Both the position numbers and the translations under genes were made by a program. A stretch of DNA of 36,824 nt from a virus (Duplodnaviria > Heunggongvirae > Uroviricota > Caudoviricetes): IMG/VR virus record IMGVR_UViG_2585427781_000006, one strand, 5' to 3'. The notes beneath the pieces were generated by a model that saw only the letters and a program-made list of their open reading frames with translations, was not told the origin of the DNA and searched no databases. Below, in pieces: positions 1 to 13,260 of the stretch (its first letter is position 1; each line of letters starts with the position of its first letter).

Positions 1-1017
1 TCACACTTCTAGCGTTGCGAGGGGGTTGAATCTCAGAGCCGTCTCAAGATGATCGGGTGCTAAATGGGCATAGCGCATAGTCATTTTTATATCGTGATGT
101 CCGAGGATTTTTTGCAAAGCAAGGATATTTCCACCCGACATCATGAAGTGCGCCGCAAACGTATGGCGCAGAACGTGTGTCAGTTGACCGCGAGGGAGCA
201 CGATAGACGTTTTTTCCATCACGGATAAAAATTGAAAATAGCAGTCTGTAAAGAAATTGAACCCATCAAGCGCCATGATCTCTTCGTAAAGCTCTTTACT
301 GATAGGGATGCTTCTGTTTTTCTTCCCCTTCGTTCTTACAAAGGTAATTCGGTATTTGGTCACTTGCGAGCGGGTAAGATTTATTGCTTCTCGCCAGCGT
401 GCGCCTGTGCTTAGGCATATCTTGACTACCAGTGCCAGAATTGGGTCCTGACGTTTGCAATCAGCCAGCAGTTCAACAATCTGCTCATGGGTAAGCCATG
501 CCATCTCTTTTTCTGCGATGGTGAATTTTCGCATGTTCTCCAGTGGGTTCGGATACGACCATTCGCCCAGGCGGGATAGTTCGCTAAAAACACTACTTAG
601 ATAGCTTTGCTCCAGGTTAATGGTGACCGGGCTTGCTCCTTTCTTCCATTTCTCGCTGAAGTAGATCTCACCTGTCAGGCGTTTATCTCGATAGTGGGCA
701 AACATTTTAGAGGTTAGATCAGTTGCAAGGGGATTGCCCAGAGCGTCAACCATCAACAGCAGTTTGTCATAGACATGCTGCCCAGCTGTCAGAGATTTAC
801 CATGTAGTTTGAACCATAGCTCAATCACGTCTTTCAATGTCCGACGATCCACTGATTCGCCCAGCCAGGGCTTTGCTTCGGTTTCTTCCATCGTGTGACG
901 CTCAAAAGCCAGAGCTTCGCCTTTGGTGGCGAATTGTTTACGCACACGACGTCCACTACGTCCGGCGGGGTAACATTCGCAAAGCCATTTTCCTGTGGTG
1001 AGTTTTCGTACTGCCAT
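1..1017 (-). CDS. int: Phage tyrosine integrase (P2/186 Int family)
   Basis: Tyrosine recombinase catalytic motifs (LRHTFAAHF ... HHDIKMTMRYAHL) in the 1..1095 ORF. Start placed at internal ATG 1017 (MAVRKLTTGKW) because a GGAGGG Shine-Dalgarno lies 8 nt upstream; the track start at 1095 is the alternative. Confidence 0.9.
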   Translation of the reverse strand: MAVRKLTTGKWLCECYPAGRSGRRVRKQFATKGEALAFERHTMEETEAKPWLGESVDRRTLKDVIELWFKLHGKSLTAGQHVYDKLLLMVDALGNPLATDLTSKMFAHYRDKRLTGEIYFSEKWKKGASPVTINLEQSYLSSVFSELSRLGEWSYPNPLENMRKFTIAEKEMAWLTHEQIVELLADCKRQDPILALVVKICLSTGARWREAINLTRSQVTKYRITFVRTKGKKNRSIPISKELYEEIMALDGFNFFTDCYFQFLSVMEKTSIVLPRGQLTHVLRHTFAAHFMMSGGNILALQKILGHHDIKMTMRYAHLAPDHLETALRFNPLATLEV

Positions 1018-1203
1018 AAAAAATGCCCTCCAGTAGAGAGCATTTTTACTGTATGTATAACCAGTGTCAATGTATGAAATCCTGCGACCATACATCTCAC
1101 TGAAGCCATAATGAAGTTAGCTATTTTTTGCTATGTGAGTATGTGACTTTTGCGGTTAGCCTGCGGCTCATTGTTATATTAGGCGCAGGTATAAAAGCAA
1201 AAT

Positions 1204-1395
1204 TTATCGCGAGTTTTTAGTACAGATTTTTTTTGATTTACTAATAGTTCCATCATTGCAAACGAACTTTCCATCGGAGGTACAGTGAGAGACACCTCCC
1301 TTTTTCCCAGAACAAGGATAATTTTTAGCATAGGTAGTTAGTGGGTTTAATAACAAAGAGCATGATAAAACCACAAAAAATACCTTACCAAGCAT
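1204..1395 (-). CDS. Small secreted cysteine-rich peptide (moron, unknown function)
   Basis: 63 aa with N-terminal hydrophobic signal-like segment ([11 protein letters not shown]) and a mature part with 5 Cys. Strong RBS (GGGAGG 5 nt upstream of ATG). AT-rich relative to flanks. Sits between the CI stop and int on the same strand. Confidence 0.5.
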
Positions 1396-1410
1396 AGTTT
1401 CCTCCCGGTA

Positions 1411-1980
1411 TTACCTAACGTACTTAATTGTTAAACTTATAATTTTCCCAATTATTTCAACATCTTCTATCTTGCACTCGAAGGCTCTGTTTCCACCCTC
1501 GACGAAGATTCTTCCACCGGGTAAACGAGTAATGTCACGGATCGTTATTTCGCCATCAATACTTATTACCCATTTACCATCACGTATATCATCAAATTCC
1601 TTATCACAAATAAATTCAGAATTATTATCTGTGATTACAAAAAGATTCTTGAATGCCGACGGTAGAAATTCTCTATCGAAAATATAAAAACCGTCTTCAC
1701 ACAAGGCCCCATCAGATAATACATATTTAGCAACTTCCATAGTATTTGTATTACCTGAAGTTTGCTTTGAACCATGCCCGGTTGTGAGCCAATTAAGCGA
1801 GGTGCCTGTTTCAAGGGCGCACTGGATTACCCATTCTGCTGGGAATGAGTCACGCATGTAGCGTGTGGCGAGTGTACTTTTAGAGATTCCTAAATGATCG
1901 CACAACGCCTGTCGAGTCTTGAATCCATAAGCTTCTACCATGCGCTCTATAGCGCCTCGTCCGCCTTTCTCCAAATTCAT
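1411..1980 (-). CDS. cI: CI-type immunity repressor (phage 186 CI-like)
   Basis: N-terminal HTH (TRQALCDHLGISKSTLATRYMRD), length about 190 aa and position next to int match 186 CI. ATG 1980 chosen over the GTG at 1986 because GGAG lies 7 nt upstream. Confidence 0.85.
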   Translation of the reverse strand: MNLEKGGRGAIERMVEAYGFKTRQALCDHLGISKSTLATRYMRDSFPAEWVIQCALETGTSLNWLTTGHGSKQTSGNTNTMEVAKYVLSDGALCEDGFYIFDREFLPSAFKNLFVITDNNSEFICDKEFDDIRDGKWVISIDGEITIRDITRLPGGRIFVEGGNRAFECKIEDVEIIGKIISLTIKYVR

Positions 1981-2004
1981 GGTCACTCCAAGTGAACTTT
2001 TATC

Positions 2005-2033
2005 TTGACGATTTCACTGTGCGATCGTATGTT
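2005..2033 (+). promoter_or_regulatory. Candidate rightward early promoter (pR-like): TTGACG-17-TATGTT, flanked by GTGAAC/GTTCAC inverted half-sites
   Basis: -35 TTGACG 2005..2010, 17-nt spacer, -10 TATGTT 2028..2033, about 70 nt upstream of the apl-like start. Inverted half-sites AGTGAAC (1991..1997) and GTTCAC (2040..2045) are candidate operators. Confidence 0.3.
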
Positions 2034-2105
2034 TATGGTGTTCACAAAATACAAACGATCCGTATTCGTCCTGATTAATCATCATTAAACGAGGAATGTT
2101 GCATC

Positions 2106-2327
2106 ATGAGACCTAACATTTCAATCACTCTTACCACCCCTCATGTGACTATTGAACGCTATAGCGAGCTGACAGGGCTATCCATCGATACCATCAATGA
2201 CATGTTGGCTGATGGACGCCTTATCCGTCACCGTCTGCGCAAAGATAAAAAACGCGAAAAAGTGATGATCAACATAGCAGCAATGACCGTTGATGCGCTT
2301 TCAGAATGCAATCTAAACCTTAATTAG
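2106..2327 (+). CDS. apl: Apl/Cox-like excisionase and switch regulator (small HTH protein)
   Basis: 73 aa, first gene rightward of the switch region, HTH-like segment ([23 protein letters not shown]). Position corresponds to 186 apl / P2 cox. Confidence 0.6.
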
Positions 2328-2359
2328 TTCGATTCTGAAATACATCAGAGGCATTGACC

Positions 2360-2869
2360 ATGTTTGATTACCAAGTTTCCAAACATCCACATTTTGATGA
2401 AGCCTGTCGTGCATTCGCATTGCGCCACAACCTGGTGCAACTGGCAGAACGTGCTGGCATGAATGTGCAGATTCTGCGGAACAAGTTGAACCCAGCGCAA
2501 CCTCATTTATTAACCGCACCAGAAATCTGGCTGCTTACCGATCTGACTGAAGATTCAACGCTGGTAGATGGTTTTCTGGCTCAGATTCACTGCCTGCCAT
2601 GCGTACCGATTAATGAGGTGGCAAAAGAGAAACTGCCACATTACGTCATGAGTGCAACCGCAGAGATCGGGCGTGTTGCTGCAGGTGCGGTATCTGGCGA
2701 TGTAAAAACCAGTGCAGGTCGTCGTGATGCTATCAGCAGCATTAACTCTGTAACACGACTGATGGCGTTGGCTGCTGTTTCATTGCAGGCCCGTTTACAG
2801 GCTAACCCGGCGATGGCGAGTGCAGTTGATACCGTGACTGGCCTCGGTGCTTCATTCGGTTTGCTGTGA
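2360..2869 (+). CDS. cII: CII-like lysogeny establishment regulator (phage 186 CII family)
   Basis: 169 aa from ATG 2360 ([19 protein letters not shown] ...), recalled as highly similar to 186 CII. Confidence 0.85.
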
Positions 2870-2876
2870 GGTGCTT

Positions 2877-3077
2877 ATGTTGACGAAAGAACCATCATTT
2901 GCATCGCTGCTGGTAAAGCAAAGCCCGGCAATGCACTACGGTCACGGCTGGATCATGGGTGAGGATGGAAAACGCTGGCATCCGTGCCGTTCACAAGATG
3001 AATTGCTGGCAGAACTATCTACGAAAAAACGGGGGAACAAATGGCTATTGAAGGCGCTGCGGCGACTGTTCCATTAA
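2877..3077 (+). CDS. Hypothetical early protein (position of 186 fil)
   Basis: 66 aa from ATG 2877 with GAGGTG RBS; follows cII in the early operon. Function not recognisable from sequence. Confidence 0.45.
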   Translation: MLTKEPSFASLLVKQSPAMHYGHGWIMGEDGKRWHPCRSQDELLAELSTKKRGNKWLLKALRRLFH

Positions 3078-3382
3078 GACCCGGTGAACGCCTGAATGGA
3101 CTTAATCATATTGCGGAGTTAAGGGCGAAAGTTTTTGGTTTGAATATTGAGTCAGAGCTTGAGCGGTTTATTAAAGATATGCGTGATCCACGGGATATCA
3201 ATAATGAACAAAATAAACGGGCACTGGCTGCCATATTCTTTATGGCAAAAATTCCAGCTGAACGTCATAGCATCAGCATTAATGAGCTGACCACTGACGA
3301 AAAGCGGGAGTTGATTAAAGCAATGAATCATTTTCGTGCAGTGGTGAGCTTATTTCCCAGACGGCTAACCATGCCGAATTAA
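3041..3382 (+). CDS. Hypothetical early-operon protein
   Basis: 113 aa ORF in the early operon, overlapping the previous gene end. No motif recognised. Confidence 0.55.
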   Translation: MAIEGAAATVPLRPGERLNGLNHIAELRAKVFGLNIESELERFIKDMRDPRDINNEQNKRALAAIFFMAKIPAERHSISINELTTDEKRELIKAMNHFRAVVSLFPRRLTMPN

Positions 3383-3910: not shown

Positions 3911-4764
3911 GCACCATCCTGAAATGGGCGGGTAATAAAACCGCCATTATGTCCGAACTGAAAAAATACCTTCCTGCTGGCCCGCGACTGGTTGAACCTT
4001 TCGCGGGTTCTTGTGCTGTGATGATGGCGACGGATTACCCCAGCTATCTGGTTGCGGATATTAATCCTGATTTAATCAACCTCTATAAAAAGATTGCCGC
4101 TGATTGCGAAGCGTTTATATCTCGTGCCAAAGTTTTATTTGAGGAAGCAAACAGTGAGCTGGCTTATTACAACATAAGACAGGAGTTTAATTACTCAACT
4201 GAAATTACTGATTTCATGAAGGCGATATATTTCCTGTATCTCAATCGTCACGGTTACCGTGGTTTATGTCGCTATAACAAGAGCGGGTATTTCAACATTC
4301 CCTACGGTAATTATAAAAATCCGTATTTCCCTGAAAAAGAAATTCGCGCATTTGCAGAGAAAGCCCAGCGGGCAACGTTTATCTGCGCGAGCTTTGATGA
4401 AACGCTGGCGATGCTGCAGGTGGGGGATGTGGTGTATTGCGATCCGCCGTATGACGGTACGTTTTCCGGCTATCACACTGATGGTTTCACTGAAGATGAC
4501 CAGTATCACCTGGCATCCATTCTTGAACATCGGTCATCAGAAGGACATCCGGTCATTGTTTCTAACAATGACACATCCCTGATTCGTTCGCTGTATCGCA
4601 ATTTTACTCACCACTATATCAAGGCAAAACGCAGCATCGGCGTGTCAGCTGGCGAGGGTAAATCTGCAACAGAAATCATTGCTGTTTCCGGGCCGAGCTG
4701 CTGGTTGGGATTTGATCCTTCGCGTGGCGTGGATAGTTCTGCCGTGTACGGAGTGTGTGTATGA
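3907..4764 (+). CDS. dam: DNA adenine methyltransferase (Dam-like, GATC-specific family)
   Basis: LKWAGNKT (AdoMet-binding region) and DPPY catalytic motif ([12 protein letters not shown]); overall collinear with E. coli Dam as recalled. Stop overlaps the gpA start. Confidence 0.88.
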
Positions 4765-7175
4765 GTCATGACGATATGAACAATTGCAGCGGCTTTAACG
4801 AGGCCGCCGCAGCATTTTCATGGAACGGCTCGAAAAAGGCCATTAACCCTTATCTGGACCCGGCGGAAGTTGCGCCGGAGTCTGCACTTTCAAACCTGAT
4901 CACTCTGTACGCTGCCGATAACGAGCAGGAACAACTGCGCCGCGAGGCACTGAGTGAGCAGGTCTGGGAGCGTTATTTCTTTAATGAATCCCGTGATCCT
5001 GTCCAGCGCGAAATGGAGCAGGATAAGCTCATTAGCCGGGCAAAGCTGGCGCATGAGCAGCAGCGTTTTAATCCGGACATGGTCATTCTGGCGGACGTAA
5101 ACGCCCAGCCTTCCCATATCAGCAAGCCGCTGATGCAACGTATTGAATACTTCAGCAGCCTGGGCAGGCCAAAGGCTTATTCCCGCTATTTGCGTGAGAC
5201 GATTAAGCCATGTCTGGAGCGACTGGATTGTGTACGTGACAGTCAGCTATCTGTTTCTTTCCGTTTTATGGCAAGCCATCAAGGGCTGGAGGGTCTGCTG
5301 ATCCTGCCTGAAATGAGCCAGGATCAGGTGAAACGCCTGTCCACCCTGGTAGCAGCGCATATGAGCATGTGTCTTGAGGACGCTTGTGGTGATTTGTATG
5401 CCACCGATGACGTTAAGCCAGAAGAAATCCGCAAGACATGGGAAAAGGTGGCAGCGGAAACCCTGCGTCTGGATGTTATCCCGCCTGCGTTTGAGAAACT
5501 TCGTCGGAAAAGAAACCGCCGCAAACCAGTGCCCTATGAACTCATCCCGGGTTCGCTGGCGCGTATGTTGTGTGCCGACTGGTGGTATCGGAAATTATGG
5601 AAGATGCGTTGCGAATGGCGGGGAGAGCAGTTGCGTGCTGTCTGCCTGGTCAGCAAAAAAGCATCCCCCTATGTCAGCTATGAAGCCGTGATGCATAAAC
5701 GTGAGCAGCGCCGTAAGTCGTTGGAGTTTTTTCGTTCTCATGAACTGGTGAACGAAGACGGCGACACGCTGGATATGGAAGATGTGGTAAACGCCAGCAG
5801 CAGCAACCCGGCGCATCGCCGCAATGAGATGATGGCCTGTGTTAAAGGTCTGGAGCTTATCGCGGAAATGCGCAGTGACTGTGCCGTTTTCTACACTATC
5901 ACCTGTCCGTCGCGTTTCCATTCCACGCTCAATAACGGCAGACCAAACCCGACCTGGACAAACGCGACGGTAAGACAAAGTAGCGATTATCTGGTCGGCA
6001 TGTTTGCTGCATTTCGTAAGGCTATGCATAAAGCCGAGTTGCGCTGGTATGGCGTGCGGGTAGCTGAGCCGCATCATGACGGTACTGTGCACTGGCATCT
6101 CATGTGTTTCATGCGTAAAAAAGACCGCCGCGCCATCACTGCATTACTGCGTAAGTTTGCCATCCGTGAAGACCGCGAGGAGCTGGGCAATAACACGGGA
6201 CCACGCTTTAAGTCTGAGCTGATAAACCCGCGCAAAGGTACGCCAACAAGCTATATCGCGAAATACATCAGTAAGAACATTGACGGGCGTGGTCTGGCTG
6301 GGGAGATCAGCAAGGAAACGGGTAAATCCCTGCGTGATAACGCTGAATACGTTAATGCCTGGGCGTCTCTGCATCGTGTTCAGCAATTCCGCTTCTTTGG
6401 CATTCCGGGGCGTCAGGCTTACCGTGAACTGCGATTGCTGGCTGGTCAGGCGGCAAGGCAACAGGGTGACAAAAAAGCAGGTGCGCCGGTACTGGATAAC
6501 CCGCGCCTTGATGCCATTCTGGCTGCTGCTGATGCTGGTTGTTTTGCCACCTATATCATGAAGCAGGGTGGCGTACTGGTTCCCCGTAAATATCACCTCA
6601 TCAGAACCGCTTATGAAATCAACGAAGAGCCAACCGCTTATGGCGATCACGGTATTCGTATTTATGGCATCTGGTCACCCATTGCAGAGGGCAAGATCTG
6701 CACTCATGCGGTGAAGTGGAAAATGGTTCGTAAGGCCGTTGACGTTCAGGAGGCGGCTGCCGACCAGGGCGCTTGCGCCCCTTGGACTCGTGGCAATAAC
6801 TGTCCCCTTGCTGAAAATTTGTACCAACAAGGGAAAGACAAATCAGCTGATGGGGATACCAGAACGGACATTACCCGCATGGATGACAAGGAGTTGCACG
6901 ATTACCTGCACAGTATGAGCAAAAAAGAGCGCCGGGACCTGGCAGCAAGGTTACGCCTGGTTAAACCGAAACGGCGTAAAGACTACAAACAGCGAATTAC
7001 ATACCATCAGCGACTGCAGCTCGTCTATGAGCTGAAGTCCAGAGGATTTGATGGTAGCGAGAAAGAGGTCGATTTACTCCTTCGCGGCGGCAGTATTCCG
7101 TCAGGAGCAGGCTTGCGTATCTTCTATCGGAACCAGCGTTTGTGGGAAGATGATAAGTGGCGGAACCTGTATTAA
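4761..7175 (+). CDS. A: Replication initiation endonuclease gpA (rolling-circle initiator)
   Basis: About 805 aa, following the early genes as in P2/186 gene A. Start at ATG 4761 overlaps the dam stop (ATGA). Confidence 0.88.
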
Positions 7176-7269
7176 TTACGCGGATTAACAATTCGTGCTC
7201 TTAATAATACCAGGCATATCAGGCTGATGAACGTAAAAAAACGTTTTACATCAGTAAGATTATTATATA

Positions 7270-7285
7270 CTGTAAATATAAACAG
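7270..7285. promoter_or_regulatory. LexA (SOS) box CTGT-N8-ACAG overlapping a promoter
   Basis: Perfect CTGTaaatataaACAG at 7270..7285 (20-mer TACTGTAAATATAAACAGTG 7268..7287), followed by a TACAGT -10-like hexamer at 7296..7301, upstream of the tum/dinI-like genes. Confidence 0.6.
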
Positions 7286-7328
7286 TGGTTATGCATACAG
7301 TATTGCTTGTGGTGTCATAGGAGGAAAG

Positions 7329-7517
7329 ATGCAGGACTATTTTTTGGAGTCTTTGAAGCTCCAGCGCATTGATTTTTTTCTTAAGCTTGTAGCGGCTAGT
7401 GAGTGTAGTGATGAAGAGAAGGGGCTGGCTCTGCAGTGGGTTTCTGAATTGACTGATGAACTCATGGCAAAGATCAGAACCCACGAATACAACCGCTCAA
7501 TGGATGTCATCAGTTGA
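7329..7517 (+). CDS. Small protein of the SOS-controlled module (Tum N-terminal-like position)
   Basis: 62 aa from ATG 7329 with AGGAGG RBS 4 nt upstream, downstream of the LexA box. Confidence 0.5.
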   Translation: MQDYFLESLKLQRIDFFLKLVAASECSDEEKGLALQWVSELTDELMAKIRTHEYNRSMDVIS

Positions 7518-7527
7518 GGTGACTTTT

Positions 7528-7761
7528 ATGCGCATTGAAATAATGATCGATAAAGAGCAGAAGATTAGCCAGTCTACCCTGGACGCCCTTGAATCCGAGC
7601 TTTACCGCAATCTGCGCCCCCTGTATCCAAAAACGGTAATTCGTATCCGTAAAGGTAGCTCTAACGGTGTGGAACTGACCGGACTGCAACTGGATGAAGA
7701 AAGAAAACAAGTGATGAAAATTATGCAGAAGGTGTGGGAAGACGACAGCTGGCTGCATTAA
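7528..7761 (+). CDS. DinI-family protein (Tum antirepressor C-terminal-like)
   Basis: 77 aa from ATG 7528 (MRIEIMIDKEQ ... VWEDDSWL), collinear with DinI as recalled. GAGGTGA RBS upstream. Confidence 0.8.
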   Translation: MRIEIMIDKEQKISQSTLDALESELYRNLRPLYPKTVIRIRKGSSNGVELTGLQLDEERKQVMKIMQKVWEDDSWLH

Positions 7762-7770
7762 GAAACGTTG

Positions 7771-7798
7771 CCCCCAAGAGGATTTATCCTGTTGGGGG
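7771..7798 (+). terminator. Hairpin downstream of the dinI-like gene (possible terminator)
   Basis: cccccaagaggat-tt-atcctgttggggg forms a long stem-loop. No clear U-tract. Confidence 0.35.
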
Positions 7799-8249
7799 GA
7801 GTTTGGGCAACGAGTGAAATGAGGTGTAAGGTGGGCGGTCATTTTGATAAGTGATCGTCCACTTTGTGTCAGAACCTGATGTTTGTTGTACATTCGGACG
7901 AATAGGCGGCGTTGTTTGCTTTAAAAATAAAACAGGAACACTTTGAGAAAGTGAACAGGTGTATTTATTTGTTGCTGATGAATGAGAGTAACTCTAATTT
8001 GGATAATTAGCTTGATAATAGGTCAGACGAAAATAATATTCCAGCACACTTTTGGTCGCAACAGGCATTAGTTAATTTTAAGTGATAAATTTTTATCCAT
8101 AAATTAACACTAGTGTGTCATCTAGCGAAACCGAATCGCTTTAACTCATAACTTGAAGTTGAATCAGTGGGGTAGCAGTAGGCATGCCGGAACTGATAAA
8201 CTGTGCAGAAGGCTAAACATTCATTCACTCGTGAGATAGTAGCTAAATT

Positions 8250-9116
8250 ATGCAAAGAATTATTCCTGATAAAAATTGGTGGGAAAAAGAGCGTATTAAT
8301 CGTAAAGCATCATCAATATGCCCATATGCTAGTTCATACAGATGTCCTCGATACTATCAGAGTGTAGTTTTGCTCTCAAGCATCAATGTGATAGCTGGTA
8401 TGGCAACTAGGAAAGAAAAAGAGTTGGGCGAATTTTGGGAAAGAACCACTTTCTCATCTTTATGTGATGAAGAAGTCCCTACAGTTACTACAAAAGAATA
8501 TGGCGGCCTTGCATCAGTTAGTAATTTTTGCCCAGAAATATCATTTAGATATTTACACTACTACGCCGATTATATGTGTAAATATGTTGATGAGATAGAT
8601 CAGGACACTGGCAGGCGTATTGCGGAAAAAGATAATTTAGAAAATGATTGGAAATATACATGGATGTCAGTCAATCCTAAATTTTATTTAGATTGCGATG
8701 TTTTTGAAACTGTCAAAAATTTCAATGAAGAATTGGCTAGTGATTACTTAAAAAGATTGCACCCAAATATCGTTCAGCAAATAGATAGAATGAATAATTG
8801 CTTGGATAATAATGATCCGGCAGGTGCACTGCACGCAGCCTCTAATATTTTAGAAACTATGGCTAAGGAAATCACTCAAAACCCGAATGTGGCAAATGAG
8901 TCATTGGGTGGTTTTTTTAAACAGTTCGAAAAAATGTCAAAATTACCTAAGAATCTTATTGATGCTGTTAAAGATATTTATGATTTACGCAACAAATTAC
9001 CTACTGCTGGACACGGAAGCTTGAACAAGCCTGAATTGACTATGGTAGAAGCTATAACTATTGCGGCAATGACAAAGGCGATTTTAGAAATTGAATATCG
9101 AAGCAAAGCCATCTAA
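8250..9116 (+). CDS. Hypothetical accessory protein (AT-rich cargo gene)
   Basis: 288 aa ORF in a strongly AT-rich island. N-terminal Cys pairs (CPYASSYRCPRY). No catalytic motif recognised with confidence. Confidence 0.6.
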   Translation: MQRIIPDKNWWEKERINRKASSICPYASSYRCPRYYQSVVLLSSINVIAGMATRKEKELGEFWERTTFSSLCDEEVPTVTTKEYGGLASVSNFCPEISFRYLHYYADYMCKYVDEIDQDTGRRIAEKDNLENDWKYTWMSVNPKFYLDCDVFETVKNFNEELASDYLKRLHPNIVQQIDRMNNCLDNNDPAGALHAASNILETMAKEITQNPNVANESLGGFFKQFEKMSKLPKNLIDAVKDIYDLRNKLPTAGHGSLNKPELTMVEAITIAAMTKAILEIEYRSKAI

Positions 9117-9243
9117 CAAACCAAATTATGTGGTTCAAATTCCCGCTACACTTCTGTGTTGCCGCCAGCGTCTACTTATCGCTGTGAGTTCAACGGGTGA
9201 TGATGCGTTAGAGATCTCTGAATCGATTGAAGTCTAAGGTTGT

Positions 9244-9265
9244 CAGGGCTGTAACAGCAGCCCTG
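9244..9265. terminator. Perfect 8-bp hairpin between the convergent cargo genes
   Basis: cagggctg-taacag-cagccctg. No U-tract on either side. Confidence 0.3.
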
Positions 9266-9365
9266 TGTCATGAATGGATTGCATATTAATTGACGAAGAA
9301 CAGACTAATATCATCGATAGCTGTTTTCAAAAATAGACCAATAACAAACTGAGATGTTATCGTAT

Positions 9366-10019
9366 TCATTTCGATGATTGATCCAGATGTGTATATAACC
9401 ATTGAAAGAGTTTTCTAATTTTTGTGATAGTATCTTTTAAATAATTTAAGGAGATTATTATATTATTTTCATTGTTTAATGAAAGAGTAGGTGTTTTATC
9501 AATGATATTTTTTAAGGCTACAGCTGTGCTCATTTTTTTAATGTCTCCATTAGCATGAACTATGCAATTCCTTACTTTGTTAAACTCTGTCATGAATTGC
9601 CACTCTTGTGACAGGCCAAAGTTTATATCCATTAATTTTGTTAAATATCTTTTTGCTTTGTGGATGCCATCACCATTAAAATCGGTTACTGATATATTGG
9701 TGTTTACAATCCTTTGACATATATTGCAATAGTCGTTTAGGTTGTGCTCTAAGCATGAGTATAAAGATACCAAAGCAGATTTATTAAAAATATTTGGTTG
9801 TATGTTAACTAAGAAATCATATTGCTCTGAATAATAGTCTTCTAAGTAATTAATATAATCGTCAGGAGCATTCTTTTTTTCATCTTCATATGCTTTTTTT
9901 AATTCCGATAAGTCAACTCTGTTTTGGCCGCCTGCTCCTAGGATATATTTTTCGAAATCATCAATCTGCGCTTCAAGTGAATATCTTGATAGCTGTGCGA
10001 AAAGTTTGTATTTACTCAT
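9366..10019 (-). CDS. Hypothetical accessory protein with HEPN-like R-N-x3-H motif (candidate Abi-type RNase)
   Basis: 217 aa ORF in the AT-rich island. Motif KVRNCIVHANGD matches the canonical HEPN R-[N]-x3-H signature in spacing and context. Confidence 0.6.
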   Translation of the reverse strand: MSKYKLFAQLSRYSLEAQIDDFEKYILGAGGQNRVDLSELKKAYEDEKKNAPDDYINYLEDYYSEQYDFLVNIQPNIFNKSALVSLYSCLEHNLNDYCNICQRIVNTNISVTDFNGDGIHKAKRYLTKLMDINFGLSQEWQFMTEFNKVRNCIVHANGDIKKMSTAVALKNIIDKTPTLSLNNENNIIISLNYLKDTITKIRKLFQWLYTHLDQSSK

Positions 10020-10362
10020 CGGTATGCCATTCCTTTTTAATTATAAACCTTTGGGTTAAAAGGTGCTGAAAATAGTAACTCATTATTTTTGTTTGTAAAG
10101 GGGGTATTGTTTTTACTAGATCAAGATAAAACAATGGGAATATCCGCTTTTCGCTCACAGCGGACTTTCATCTTTGTAAACCCGTATGATTAGCTTTTCA
10201 GCGGTCATTCAGATACGGATTTACGCTTCCCTTGGCTGTGCATGACTATGACGCATGAGATCGCATGATCGTTAGAGGATCGTTTTTGCTGAGGCCAGCC
10301 AGAACTGGCGTGCTTTTGCTTATGTCGTGCAGGTGCATGAAAACCACTACATAAAGCGGGCA

Positions 10363-10381
10363 GGCGTGGCGGGGATACGAG
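10363..10381. other. Probable cos site (cohesive end region)
   Basis: GGCGTGGCGGGGA at 10363..10375 matches the first 13 nt of the 186 cohesive end as recalled (GGCGTGGCGGGGAAAGCAT; P2 GGCGAGGCGGGGAAAGCAC). Lies in a 500-bp non-coding GC-normal stretch. Confidence 0.45.
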
Positions 10382-10410
10382 CGCGCGCTAAGTCATATAA
10401 GAGTTATATA

Positions 10411-10439
10411 TTGATTTGATTGCTGGACATGCATACAGT
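10411..10439 (+). promoter_or_regulatory. Candidate promoter of the kinase/HIRAN operon (TTGATT-17-TACAGT) with degenerate LexA-like box
   Basis: -35 TTGATT 10411..10416, 17-nt spacer, -10 TACAGT 10434..10439. CTGG-N8-ACAG at 10423..10438 is one mismatch from the LexA box core. Shares the 13-mer ATGCATACAGTAT with the tum promoter region. Confidence 0.3.
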
Positions 10440-10533
10440 ATCGCTCTATCATCTAATAAATCTTAGAGTATTTGACAATGTTTGGATAAAATGGAACCTA
10501 ACTTATTCATAATCCGCTAAACAGGGATGTCAG

Positions 10534-11448
10534 ATGCCATACCAATTGGTAGAGCTTAGCCCCGTAGCTAACGATCTTGAACAGTTAGGAACCAAAGAGA
10601 AGTTTTGGTTCTATTTCTCCGATGACACTGTAAATTTGCAGTTGTTTAAGTACTCTAGGCCAGGTACTGGCGAGCATTGGTCTGAAAAGTGTGCTGCTGA
10701 GTTATGTCATTTGCTTAACATTCCACATGCTAGCTATGATTTGGCGCGATACAATGGTCGATTCGGTGTGGTGACTCAGAATATCATTCCATCTGGTTTC
10801 CGGATGGTAATGGGAAATGAAGTGCTTCACAGTTCGACATTCGATTATCCAGGGCCTTTACAAGCCGGGGAAAAGCCGGTAAGGGTCAGAGAACACACTG
10901 TCACAAGGGTATTGGGTTGTTTAGATAGGGAATCTATCAAGCCTCCTCCGAGTGTATATGATCTAACCGGGCTAAATGCAGCAGATGTATTTTGTGGATT
11001 TTTGATGCTCGATGCACTTGTGAGTAATCAAGATCGCCATCATGAAAATTGGGCGATCATGCTTAACAATGAAACTGGTGAGCAGTTTTTGTGTCCAACA
11101 TACGATCATGCCGCTAGTTTAGGAAGGGAGATGTTAGATGATGAGCGTAACGAACGGCTTAATACTAAAGATAAAAATCGACAAATCCCATGTTTTGTAA
11201 GAAAAGCTCGCTCTGAGCTATTCAAAGCAAAAACTGATAAAAAGCCCTTGCTGACCGTTGAAGCATTTCAACATGCAGTTGAAGGGAGAGTTGCCGCTCG
11301 CGACCATTGGTTAGGTAAGTTGAGCGTTTTAACAGAAGATTCCATTACAGATGTGTTTAACCAAGTGCCTTCATCGTGTATATCCGACAGTGCACGTAGA
11401 TTTGCAACGTTAATGGTAATGGAAAATCGCAGAAGGTTACTAGAATGA
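10534..11448 (+). CDS. HipA-family Ser/Thr kinase, short form (kinase core only)
   Basis: 304 aa. Gly-rich loop-like LGTKEKFWF near the N-terminus (compare HipA VAGAQEKT), catalytic loop SNQDRHHENWA (compare HipA TDGHAKNFS) and CPTYDHAAS (compare HipA TPFYDIIS). Lacks the HipA N-terminal domain. Confidence 0.7.
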   Translation: MPYQLVELSPVANDLEQLGTKEKFWFYFSDDTVNLQLFKYSRPGTGEHWSEKCAAELCHLLNIPHASYDLARYNGRFGVVTQNIIPSGFRMVMGNEVLHSSTFDYPGPLQAGEKPVRVREHTVTRVLGCLDRESIKPPPSVYDLTGLNAADVFCGFLMLDALVSNQDRHHENWAIMLNNETGEQFLCPTYDHAASLGREMLDDERNERLNTKDKNRQIPCFVRKARSELFKAKTDKKPLLTVEAFQHAVEGRVAARDHWLGKLSVLTEDSITDVFNQVPSSCISDSARRFATLMVMENRRRLLE

Positions 11449-12185
11449 CTAATACAAACTCCGTTTACGTCGCATGGCAGGCACCAGATACCAGAGACTG
11501 GCATGTTGTTGGTAACTTGCAAGAGCGCAAATCGGGGTATGTTTTCAGGTATACCAAAGGTGCTCTTAAATCTACTAAATTTACAAAGTTTAGCGGCATG
11601 AGTGATGTTCGTGAAACTTATGTTTCGGAAGAATTGTTTCCTCTTTTTAAAAATCGCCTTTTATCACCGAGACGTCCAGAGTATCCGAGTTTCATTAAAT
11701 GGCTTGGATTTGAAGAAGATAAGGTAAATCCTATCGATATTCTTGCTCGCTCGGGAGGCTTACGAAGCACTGATCAGCTGCAGATTTTCAAAAAAATTGA
11801 TGTTGATTCTGATGGTAACTTTGAGCATTTTTTCTTCTTACATGGACTTGGTTACTTAAATAGCTTAGCTAATGCTCGTGTATCTGAATTGAAACCGGGG
11901 CAAATTTTGCGTCTTTGCTTGGATCTTCAAAATGAATACGATGGGGATGCTGTTGTCGTTCGTGCAGATAAACCAGCTGAAATCGTTGGTTACTGCCCTA
12001 GGTATTTAAGTAATGATATCAAGAAGATGTTATTGGATGATCCAAAATCAATCACTTTAACGGTCGAAAAGATTAGCGATGATGCTCCTCATAACTATCG
12101 GTTATTATGTAAATTATCAGGAGTACTAAGCCAAGCCTGTCAATCGACGCTGATTCCTCAGGATGAGTTTGAACCTATTGAGTAA
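11445..12185 (+). CDS. HIRAN-domain protein with HipA-N-terminal-like (HipS-like) region
   Basis: 246 aa, start overlapping the kinase stop (ATGA). C-terminal LRLCLDLQNEYDGDAVVVRADKPAEIVGYCPRYLSNDIKKMLLD fits the HIRAN signature. N-terminal half shows the pattern of the HipA N-domain (LFKNRLLSPRRP ... PIDILARSGG versus HipA FFDNLLPDSP ... PFDLLSEIGRD). Confidence 0.6.
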   Translation: MTNTNSVYVAWQAPDTRDWHVVGNLQERKSGYVFRYTKGALKSTKFTKFSGMSDVRETYVSEELFPLFKNRLLSPRRPEYPSFIKWLGFEEDKVNPIDILARSGGLRSTDQLQIFKKIDVDSDGNFEHFFFLHGLGYLNSLANARVSELKPGQILRLCLDLQNEYDGDAVVVRADKPAEIVGYCPRYLSNDIKKMLLDDPKSITLTVEKISDDAPHNYRLLCKLSGVLSQACQSTLIPQDEFEPIE

Positions 12186-12219: not shown

Positions 12220-13260
12220 TTATGGGACTATATCTAGCGAGTAGGTATTAAACTGTATCGCCTCCTTGCCAAGCCAATCATTCATCTCCTGTAATCGCTT
12301 TTGTAGTGGCATTAGCTCATTTCGGACGAATACACGGCTGGCCTTCTCCACATCCCCAAACCCCCCGACATTATTAGGCATTATCCCCATCATTTGTGGC
12401 GGCACACGATGCGCCGCCATCATGTCGTCCCGGCTCACGTTCTTGATATTCAGGAACTCATCCTTCGCCGCCACTTCTGACAACGGGATAATCTGAAGCC
12501 CGTCCTTTTTACCGTTAGGCGAGTACATAAACAGGTTACGGAAGTTACCAGGACCTTTGGCGCTTTTCATCGCATTGCGGAGGTTGTTCACATCCTCCTG
12601 GTTCTGCGCTGCATCGGTCATGTACATGATGAAGCCTGCATGACTGCCGTTAATGTAATACTTGCGGCGGAACAGCGTGGCGGACTCGTTGAGCAGAGCT
12701 GACGGAATGGCAGAAAGATAACCAGGCAGGCCGTAGATCTCCTGGTTGATGTCCGGTTCCATCAGATGAAAAATGTTGCCTTTCGTGAACTGATACGGCT
12801 GCGTAGTCATGCCGTATTGCACAAACCAGTAGGTATCAAGGTCTAACCCGCGTCGGGTGTATTTTGCCAGTGCAGGCTCAAGGGCGATAACTTCACCGAA
12901 GCGGTTCGTGCGTTTCTCCAGGTAGGCGTTACCAAAAACCAGATAGTCCTGTACAAAACGCGAAAAAGCCTGCTGGCTGAGCAGCGGGTGAGGGATGTAG
13001 GTGCTGGTCAGAATGTTGCACTTCACTGCAATCGGTGAGCTGTGATGCACGGCGGCGCGGAAGGTTCGCGCCAGTCCGTCGAAACTCACAGGCGGCTCGT
13101 ACCAACGATCCATCTGTACGCATTCCACATAGTCCAGCAGTTCGCGGCGGTCCAGAACAGGAACGGGATCACCGAAGCTGAATGCTTCGGCTGAAGTCTG
13201 GCTTTTATGCTGGATCTGTTTCGTCGACGCAGCGCGGTTCTTCTTACTCTTTCCCATCAA
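12220..13260 (-). CDS. Q: Portal protein gpQ
   Basis: 346 aa, size and position as in P2 Q (adjacent to the large terminase gene, divergent from the capsid operon). Confidence 0.88.
   Translation of the reverse strand: MMGKSKKNRAASTKQIQHKSQTSAEAFSFGDPVPVLDRRELLDYVECVQMDRWYEPPVSFDGLARTFRAAVHHSSPIAVKCNILTSTYIPHPLLSQQAFSRFVQDYLVFGNAYLEKRTNRFGEVIALEPALAKYTRRGLDLDTYWFVQYGMTTQPYQFTKGNIFHLMEPDINQEIYGLPGYLSAIPSALLNESATLFRRKYYINGSHAGFIMYMTDAAQNQEDVNNLRNAMKSAKGPGNFRNLFMYSPNGKKDGLQIIPLSEVAAKDEFLNIKNVSRDDMMAAHRVPPQMMGIMPNNVGGFGDVEKASRVFVRNELMPLQKRLQEMNDWLGKEAIQFNTYSLDIVP

Follow-up and report, generated by a model that had tools for sequence, protein, structure and literature searches.

A candidate single-protein sensor-plus-RNase cassette, with a four-cysteine N-terminal domain and a HEPN-type C-terminus, in the gpA-gpQ hotspot of a P2-like phage genome

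In AbiJ-type abortive-infection proteins, a variable N-terminal domain (NTD) is proposed to recognise a viral component and to restrain a C-terminal HEPN toxin (Anantharaman et al. 2013, PMC3710099). One Abi_C protein of this kind, Taranis, comes from the integron of Vibrio cholerae and is experimentally supported (10.1101/2024.07.02.601686). RAZR (PD-T7-4) is a single-protein abortive-infection RNase of E. coli that joins a Cys4 zinc ribbon to a divergent C-terminal HEPN domain; its R146 and H154 have Rx7H spacing and are both required for defence, and it assembles around phage portal or recombinase rings (PMC13017515). Two further HEPN proteins are encoded by prophages: HepS of Gifsy-1, whose structure was determined in complex with the lambda J tail tip (PDB 9oik), and Tha of S. 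aureus prophages, which is activated by tail proteins (PMC11087260). Here we describe a gene for a 288-amino-acid (288-aa) protein (8250..9116, + strand) in a 36,824-nt stretch of DNA from a tailed phage (Caudoviricetes; IMG/VR record IMGVR_UViG_2585427781_000006), which we refer to as the window. We think it fairly probable that this gene is a stand-alone "moron" cassette in the gpA-gpQ hotspot and that it encodes a candidate single-protein, AbiJ/RAZR-like sensor-plus-RNase abortive-infection protein.

The open reading frame (ORF) has an ATG start and codes for 288 aa, exactly as a first-pass annotation, made from the DNA letters alone, had stated. That annotation also called the protein an orphan, which it is not: its homologues formed 63 clusters when 5.8 billion proteins were searched, and every one is named "hypothetical". 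The clusters range over the Gammaproteobacteria, with hosts in Escherichia, Salmonella, Serratia, Hafnia, Pectobacterium, Vibrio, Shewanella, Pseudomonas, Vreelandella, and Methylophaga. As full-length relatives at 96% down to 42% identity occur in several orders, we take this to be a real gene; and as the N-terminus (MxxxxPD) is conserved among the homologues, the start codon is right. The family alignment has two blocks, N-terminal (aa 1-172) and C-terminal, and these are separable, because some members (P0057-P0063) keep the N-block and have an unrelated C-terminus. The whole protein had no match in NCBIfam, only a weak match to one unknown family in PHROGs, and, with the full-length profile, no match in a PDB sequence search.

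The gene lies downstream of the replication gene gpA (4755-7175) and upstream of the portal gene (12220-13260, - strand), which places it in the gpA-gpQ interval. (A DinI-like gene, Pfam DinI at E 1.3e-22, occupies 7456-7761.) Rousset et al. 2022 (PMC9122126) described this interval as a P2 hotspot of defence and diversity, in which P2 itself has old and tin. In related P2 prophages the slot holds other cargo, such as a SIR2 gene with an ATPase gene, or another downstream pair. The G+C content of 8001-10000 is 32-37%, versus 52-60% in the flanking P2 core genes. The first-pass view of an AT-rich island with a non-core gene at the tin/old cargo position thus holds. Searchable text gave no literature match to the cassette by RefSeq accession. 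Keyword and passage searches gave nothing matching it in the text of two P2/P4 hotspot papers, a result that does not extend to their supplementary tables. Also, no DNA near-identical to the window was found among phage records.

The C-terminal domain (aa 173-288; 8766..9116, + strand) is modelled as a divergent, AbiJ/Abi_C-like HEPN-type domain. The helical C-terminus seen at first pass corresponds in the predicted structure to the helical HEPN fold, and fold comparison matched it to the HEPN proteins 2hsb (14.0) and 1ufb (11.6), the HEPN domain of sacsin (11.4), the HEPN toxin 5yep (10.6), LsoA (10.5), AbiA (9.4), Csm6 (8.4), Gifsy-1 HepS (7.6), and AbiV (6.8); 7ae2 was also among the matches. 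By sequence, only one match recurs, that to Pfam Abi_C (PF14355, the C-terminus of lactococcal AbiJ), which was found at E ≤ 0.1 in 9 of 31 family members. A PDB sequence search with the HEPN profile returned chance coiled-coil matches only. The conserved motifs of this block are NDPxGxLHAASNILETMAK and LRNxxPxxGHGS. The putative catalytic motif R247-N-K-L-P-T-A-G-H255 (Rx7H; 8988..9014, + strand) lies within LRNxxPxxGHG, and R247 and H255 are invariant in every full-length family member. We infer that this domain is an RNase module in which R247 and H255 are catalytic.

The N-terminal domain (aa 1-172; 8250..8765, + strand) is predicted to have an alpha+beta fold and has four invariant cysteines: C24 (codon 8319-8321), C32 (8343-8345), C94 (8529-8531), and C149 (8694-8696). 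The N-terminal cysteine cluster that had been noted at first pass is present (CPYASSYRCPRY, aa 24-35), and it belongs to this larger four-cysteine site. The cysteines are at the starts of helices, mostly with a proline directly after them (in the wider family, this holds for all four), and E74, E96, D114, and D117 are also invariant in the block. The four invariant cysteines of the cytoplasmic domain probably ligate zinc or an Fe-S cluster. No model in Pfam, PADLOC, NCBIfam, or PHROG matches the domain, and fold searches of PDB and BFVD gave nothing similar. What seems to be new here, then, is a single-gene NTD-HEPN candidate whose N-domain matches no domain model or solved structure that was searched.

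Searching 1.84 billion representatives with a profile of the N-domain returned 654 proteins at E ≤ 1e-3, of which 552 were at E ≤ 1e-10. Nearly all of the matches cover only profile positions ~1-160, within proteins of 154-819 aa. Among 149 representatives, the four cysteines are 99-100% conserved. The domain is N-terminal in 134 of the 152 domain hits in these proteins; it stands alone in 49 of them, has 100 or more residues after it in 77, and is followed by a hydrophobic helix in 33. The best-scoring relatives are stand-alone proteins of 170-215 aa that lack a Pfam annotation. The taxa include Gamma- and Betaproteobacteria, Desulfobacterota, Acidobacteriota, Verrucomicrobiota, Nitrospirota, and Nitrospinota. 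Many of the short proteins end in a single hydrophobic helix, and some have a beta-rich region beyond that helix (P0245, P0293, P0070, and P0077).

When 92 longer members were scanned against Pfam, no family covered the N-domain itself, but its partners were identified. These are TIR_2 (19 members), TIR (11), CAP12/Pycsar TIR (5), DpnII-MboI restriction endonuclease (3), PLDc_2 (2), and HTH_17 (2), with one member each for a protein kinase (with TPR), GGDEF, Schlafen AlbA_2, SEFIR, and bona fide Abi_C. The PADLOC models ThsB, bSEFIR, SAVED-TIR, RT-TIR, PDC-S66, PDC-S35, and PDC-S05 match only the effector halves of N-domain proteins. The Abi_C member, P0188 (53.8 bits), is a true Abi_C protein with the same N-domain as the window protein; the two are co-linear by hhalign and hmmsearch, and ELRNVHGTGHG in P0188 corresponds to LRNKLPTAGHG in the window protein. 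A variable NTD followed by a C-terminal HEPN domain with an LRN..GHG signature is the Abi_C/AbiJ-type arrangement.

We infer that the N-domain is a sensor or regulatory module. A bolder proposal is that it is a structurally new metal or Fe-S module for sensing infection and that a large superfamily of single-protein immune sensors is built on it; we offer this only tentatively and consider it the less probable outcome. As part of the same tentative proposal, this one sensor would drive TIR, SEFIR, HEPN, restriction endonuclease, phospholipase D (PLD), kinase, and membrane effectors in Proteobacteria, Acidobacteriota, Verrucomicrobiota, Nitrospirota, and other groups. If so, the 288-aa P2 cassette would be the first tractable E. 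coli member.

The genomic contexts of the gene, which include prophages, an integron-like array in Vibrio, and defence islands, show that it moves by itself. In complete genomes of E. coli, 10 records (9 genomes) contain window positions 7900-10300 at 99.2% identity or more, eight contain 7900-9349 only, and one has an 82%-identical gene. Segments of the window recur in three unrelated contexts: in a Rac-like lambdoid prophage, beside a zeta-toxin gene (shared window 7864-9349, 95.6% identity); in a Salmonella prophage, beside tail-fibre assembly genes (8132-9183, 90.3%); and in E. coli NCTC9064, between a DUF4297 gene with an AAA-ATPase and a Gabija-like pair of nuclease and helicase (8172-9127, 80.8%). 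The mobile unit is therefore the gene with ~80-390 bp upstream and 10-230 bp downstream, and the gene is a self-contained, single-gene mobile cassette. The upstream non-coding DNA that travels with it (8132..8249, + strand, and as far as 7864 in the Rac copies) presumably holds its own promoter and ribosome-binding site. A promoter scan gave matches that were no commoner than expected by chance.

Other homologues add further contexts. A Pseudomonas homologue is flanked by a NACHT protein and a KAP NTPase. Serratia plymuthica and one IMG/VR contig have 43%-identical homologues, again beside a P2-type portal gene. In the Salmonella prophage (locus L004, 3706-5879), a GT4-conflict glycosyltransferase and a 232-aa DUF4145 protein are encoded just upstream of the homologue. 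As the DUF4145 protein has a weak match to PD-T7-4/RAZR (E 5.5e-5), two different genes of the Cys-domain/HEPN type stand side by side there. BLASTP between the HEPN domain of the 288-aa protein and this neighbour was not significant. Homologues in Vibrio are rare (6 contigs). In V. cholerae (L020-L022), a 64%-identical homologue belongs to a row of short genes on one strand (acetyltransferase, glyoxalase, HNH_5), which from its gene arrangement looks like superintegron cassettes.

Several observations weigh against an AbiJ/RAZR-like abortive-infection protein. Against a gathering cut-off of 24 bits, Abi_C scores 18.8 bits with the window protein and 20.7 bits with its best close relative, which is 96% identical; the sole PADLOC match is PDC-S32, at E 0.0096. 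The spacing of 7 between R247 and H255 (Rx7H) is outside the canonical Rx4-6H. The structure prediction is otherwise confident, but the loop that carries H255 has a predicted local distance difference test (pLDDT) value below 50, and the relative orientation of the domains is poorly fixed (predicted template-modelling score, pTM, 0.58). At position 145, the wider N-domain family has a 100%-conserved histidine (HYxEC), while the enterobacterial subfamily of the window has phenylalanine (codon 8682-8684); this subfamily has an invariant histidine at position 171. Finally, the Rac-like copies (L001, 6351-7217; EC261 and 7 other E. coli genomes) have a stop at codon 114 (KYVD*IDQ), inside the conserved DEID motif, and are annotated as two coding sequences. 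Given this nonsense codon, the gene is dispensable in those 8 genomes. (The neighbours in L001 are the zeta-toxin family gene and a hypothetical gene.)

If the protein does act as an AbiJ/RAZR-like sensor and RNase, then the lysogen would make it constitutively in an inactive state. When a competing phage infects the cell, the N-domain would recognise a phage product, which might be a protein assembly, a nucleic acid, or a metabolite. Recognition would rearrange the HEPN dimer or alter its oligomerisation, and R247 and H255 would then make up a composite active site. The resulting RNA cleavage would stop translation and, with it, growth of the phage.

A second possibility is that the gene is not anti-phage at all, but serves as a toxin-like module for addiction or stabilisation, or encodes an RNase for the regulation of the prophage itself or for host physiology. 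HEPN domains are common toxins of toxin-antitoxin systems (5yep and 7ae2, among the fold matches, are examples), a zeta toxin gene adjoins the gene in the Rac context, and nonsense-inactivated copies would fit a costly or toxic gene. This seems unlikely, however, because the gene travels without an antitoxin-like partner gene or a repeat RNA: a repeat search upstream for a type III antitoxin-like array found no family of more than 2 copies, and Rfam gave no match in 7700-10550. Also, its neighbours are mostly defence genes, and the other partners of the N-domain (TIR, restriction endonuclease, PLD, SEFIR) are typical defence effectors.

Third, the gene could be one half of a two-gene system. 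The first-pass annotation had pointed out that it is convergent with a 217-aa gene, as is the case (9366..10019, - strand), and had suggested that the two might form a pair. The 217-aa protein has the motif VRNCIVH (Rx4H), matches PADLOC RTasHEPN (E 1.1e-5), and is named a RiboL-PSP-HEPN domain protein by some sources. As the 288-aa protein is itself a HEPN protein, the earlier contrast between it and "the HEPN-like gene" was misleading. The two proteins might act together, or one might regulate the other, with a hairpin between the genes as a shared bidirectional terminator. In complete genomes of E. coli, the 217-aa gene is present only in the 10 records that also have the 288-aa gene, and the block that holds both (7003-10389) is kept in IMG/VR and E. 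coli P2-like loci whose downstream cassette varies from prophage to prophage. But all of the co-occurring copies are 98-100% identical and come from the E. coli P2 lineage only, so they represent one recent lineage. Outside of that lineage, we found no relative of the 217-aa gene within the 3-6 kb flanks of the 288-aa family at 20 or more other loci (Rac-like, Salmonella, Vibrio, Pseudomonas, Serratia, and others). Conversely, there was no relative of the 288-aa gene near 217-aa homologues (61-81% identity) at 7 loci in Salmonella, Enterobacter, and Morganella prophages (L013-L019). The 217-aa family thus occurs alone at other moron sites of prophages. In Salmonella and Enterobacter these include the place where lambdoid tail-fibre regions end, while the Morganella copy, in a P2-like prophage, has the tail sheath gene on one side and tail-fibre assembly genes on the other. 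Also, the 288-aa and 217-aa genes are convergent and not co-transcribed.

The hairpin itself exists as first reported: 8 perfect base pairs, G+C-rich, at 9244-9251 / 9258-9265 with a 6-nt loop (CAGGGCTG-TAACAG-CAGCCCTG). It is the sole element in the centroid RNA fold of 9180-9320 (+ strand), but this region overall folds no better than shuffled sequences (z of -1.5 and -1.7). The window contains 14 perfect 8-bp hairpins, versus 3.5 ± 2.4 in shuffles, and 3 of these have at least 6 G/C pairs, so the hairpin is real but unexceptional. It is conserved only in the closest copies, L001 and the P2 prophage of E. coli PEC422 (L002). No T/U tract follows the stem on either strand and a terminator scan made no call; the hairpin is not a canonical intrinsic terminator. 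A 34-nt imperfect inverted repeat (8626-8659 / 9621-9654, 79% complementary) has its arms inside the 288-aa and 217-aa genes and is probably a chance occurrence in AT-rich DNA. Given these patterns of co-occurrence, a two-gene system is quite improbable, and we regard the 288-aa and 217-aa genes as independent cassettes that came together recently; a functional link specific to this lineage has a weak chance of being real.

Fourth, the four-cysteine domain could itself be the enzyme or effector, for instance an Fe-S or zinc enzyme of nucleic acids that uses E74, E96, D114, and D117, with the C-terminal modules as accessories. Invariant acidic residues alongside four cysteines would suit an enzyme, as would the many stand-alone versions of about 170-215 aa. 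We consider this very unlikely because the domain has no fold similarity to any known enzyme and because nearly every domain fused to it is an established effector. Furthermore, many of the stand-alone versions have a C-terminal transmembrane helix or a protease gene after them, and either could supply the effector. (For one stand-alone gene, at locus L026 4001-5852, a trypsin-like protease gene is 26 bp downstream.) Finally, that the ORF is a chance or decaying one in AT-rich DNA, as its base composition, its "hypothetical" annotation by all sources, and the pseudogene copies might suggest, can be dismissed given the full-length conservation down to 42% identity across several orders, the invariant motifs, and the confident structure prediction; indeed, the conservation data already refute it.

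Downstream of the two HEPN genes, the window has an overlapping pair of genes (10534-11448 / 11445-12185, + strand) that matches the PADLOC candidate system PDC-M03A/B (E 1.4e-121 and 3.4e-93). They encode a HipA-like kinase (a weak HipA_C match) and a HIRAN-domain protein. In E. coli 89-3156, which has a relative of P2, a SIR2 gene and an ATPase gene replace the two HEPN genes and are followed by the same PDC-M03 pair, so the hotspot appears as a row of exchangeable modules. In the prophage of E. coli PEC422, which has other downstream cargo, the 99.5% match to the window ends at ~10389; there, the same two HEPN genes are followed not by PDC-M03 but by a hypothetical gene of 81 aa and a gene of the "LPO_1073/Vpar_1526 family" (L002 8551-9663), neither of which had a PADLOC match. 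About 160 bp of non-coding DNA (10139-10299) is 93-94% conserved in more than 600 E. coli genomes and in 89-3156 lies just upstream of the PDC-M03 pair. This segment may be a junction for cassette exchange. With three independent modules adjoining, the locus shows cassette-by-cassette turnover in the P2 hotspot.

If the sensor-plus-RNase candidate does protect against phages, it would be a compact (<1.2 kb), E. coli-native addition to the HEPN abortive-infection group. More importantly, it would be an experimental handle on an N-domain that has more than 550 clusters at 50% identity and is wired to most classes of immune effector. The ligand of the N-domain, and whether it holds zinc or Fe-S, would explain how many TIR, HEPN, and nuclease proteins are activated.

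It is useful to compare the cassette with the systems that it most resembles. Like old, tin, and the other gpA-gpQ cargo (Rousset et al. 2022, PMC9122126), it occupies the slot between replication and portal genes and takes part in modular cassette turnover, but the proteins are unrelated. It also resembles the AbiJ-type proteins, including AbiJ of Lactococcus lactis (Abi-859) and Taranis. These are also single polypeptides of ~280 aa with a variable NTD followed by an LRN...GHG HEPN domain; they also occur in mobile elements and defence islands; and the N-domain of the 288-aa protein is itself fused to bona fide Abi_C in P0188. The proposed logic would be the same, in that the NTD senses and restrains while the HEPN domain kills. 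The 288-aa protein differs in falling below the Abi_C cut-off and in having a catalytic loop that is one residue longer.

Which NTD this would be is a related question. The Pfam families AbiJ_NTD3, NTD4, and NTD5 had no match to the window protein at E ≤ 1 or to the 92 longer N-domain proteins at E ≤ 0.001, which rules them out. AbiJ-NTD1, which did not appear in the Pfam scans, is reported with HEPN partners (of the AbiJ, DUF4145, and Ymh types) and with HKD, kinase, and restriction endonuclease partners (PMC3710099), and this fusion spectrum is much like that of the four-cysteine domain. By its description AbiJ-NTD1 is mostly helical, and that description does not speak of cysteines (PMC3710099). 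A narrower genome scan for the N-domain, which was run with this identity in mind, did not return Burkholderia vietnamiensis. We judge the case for the four-cysteine domain being AbiJ-NTD1 to be about evenly balanced.

Identity with Taranis is rejected indirectly, from its description: Taranis is a protein of V. cholerae N16961 whose N-terminus resembles NTD5, whereas the Vibrio homologues here are rare and have no NTD5 match. RAZR shares with the 288-aa protein an N-terminal cysteine domain, a divergent C-terminal HEPN domain, and an R-to-H spacing of 7 (R247/H255 in the 288-aa protein), and a RAZR-like gene is directly upstream of the Salmonella homologue. However, there is no PADLOC PD-T7-4 match, the cysteine spacing (24/32/94/149) is not that of a ribbon, and the N-domain has no fold match, so we reject identity with RAZR as well. 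HepS and Tha lack the four-cysteine domain and have no detectable sequence similarity to the 288-aa protein. Thus, the 288-aa protein belongs by sequence to none of Taranis, RAZR, HepS, or Tha, but it appears to share their working principle.
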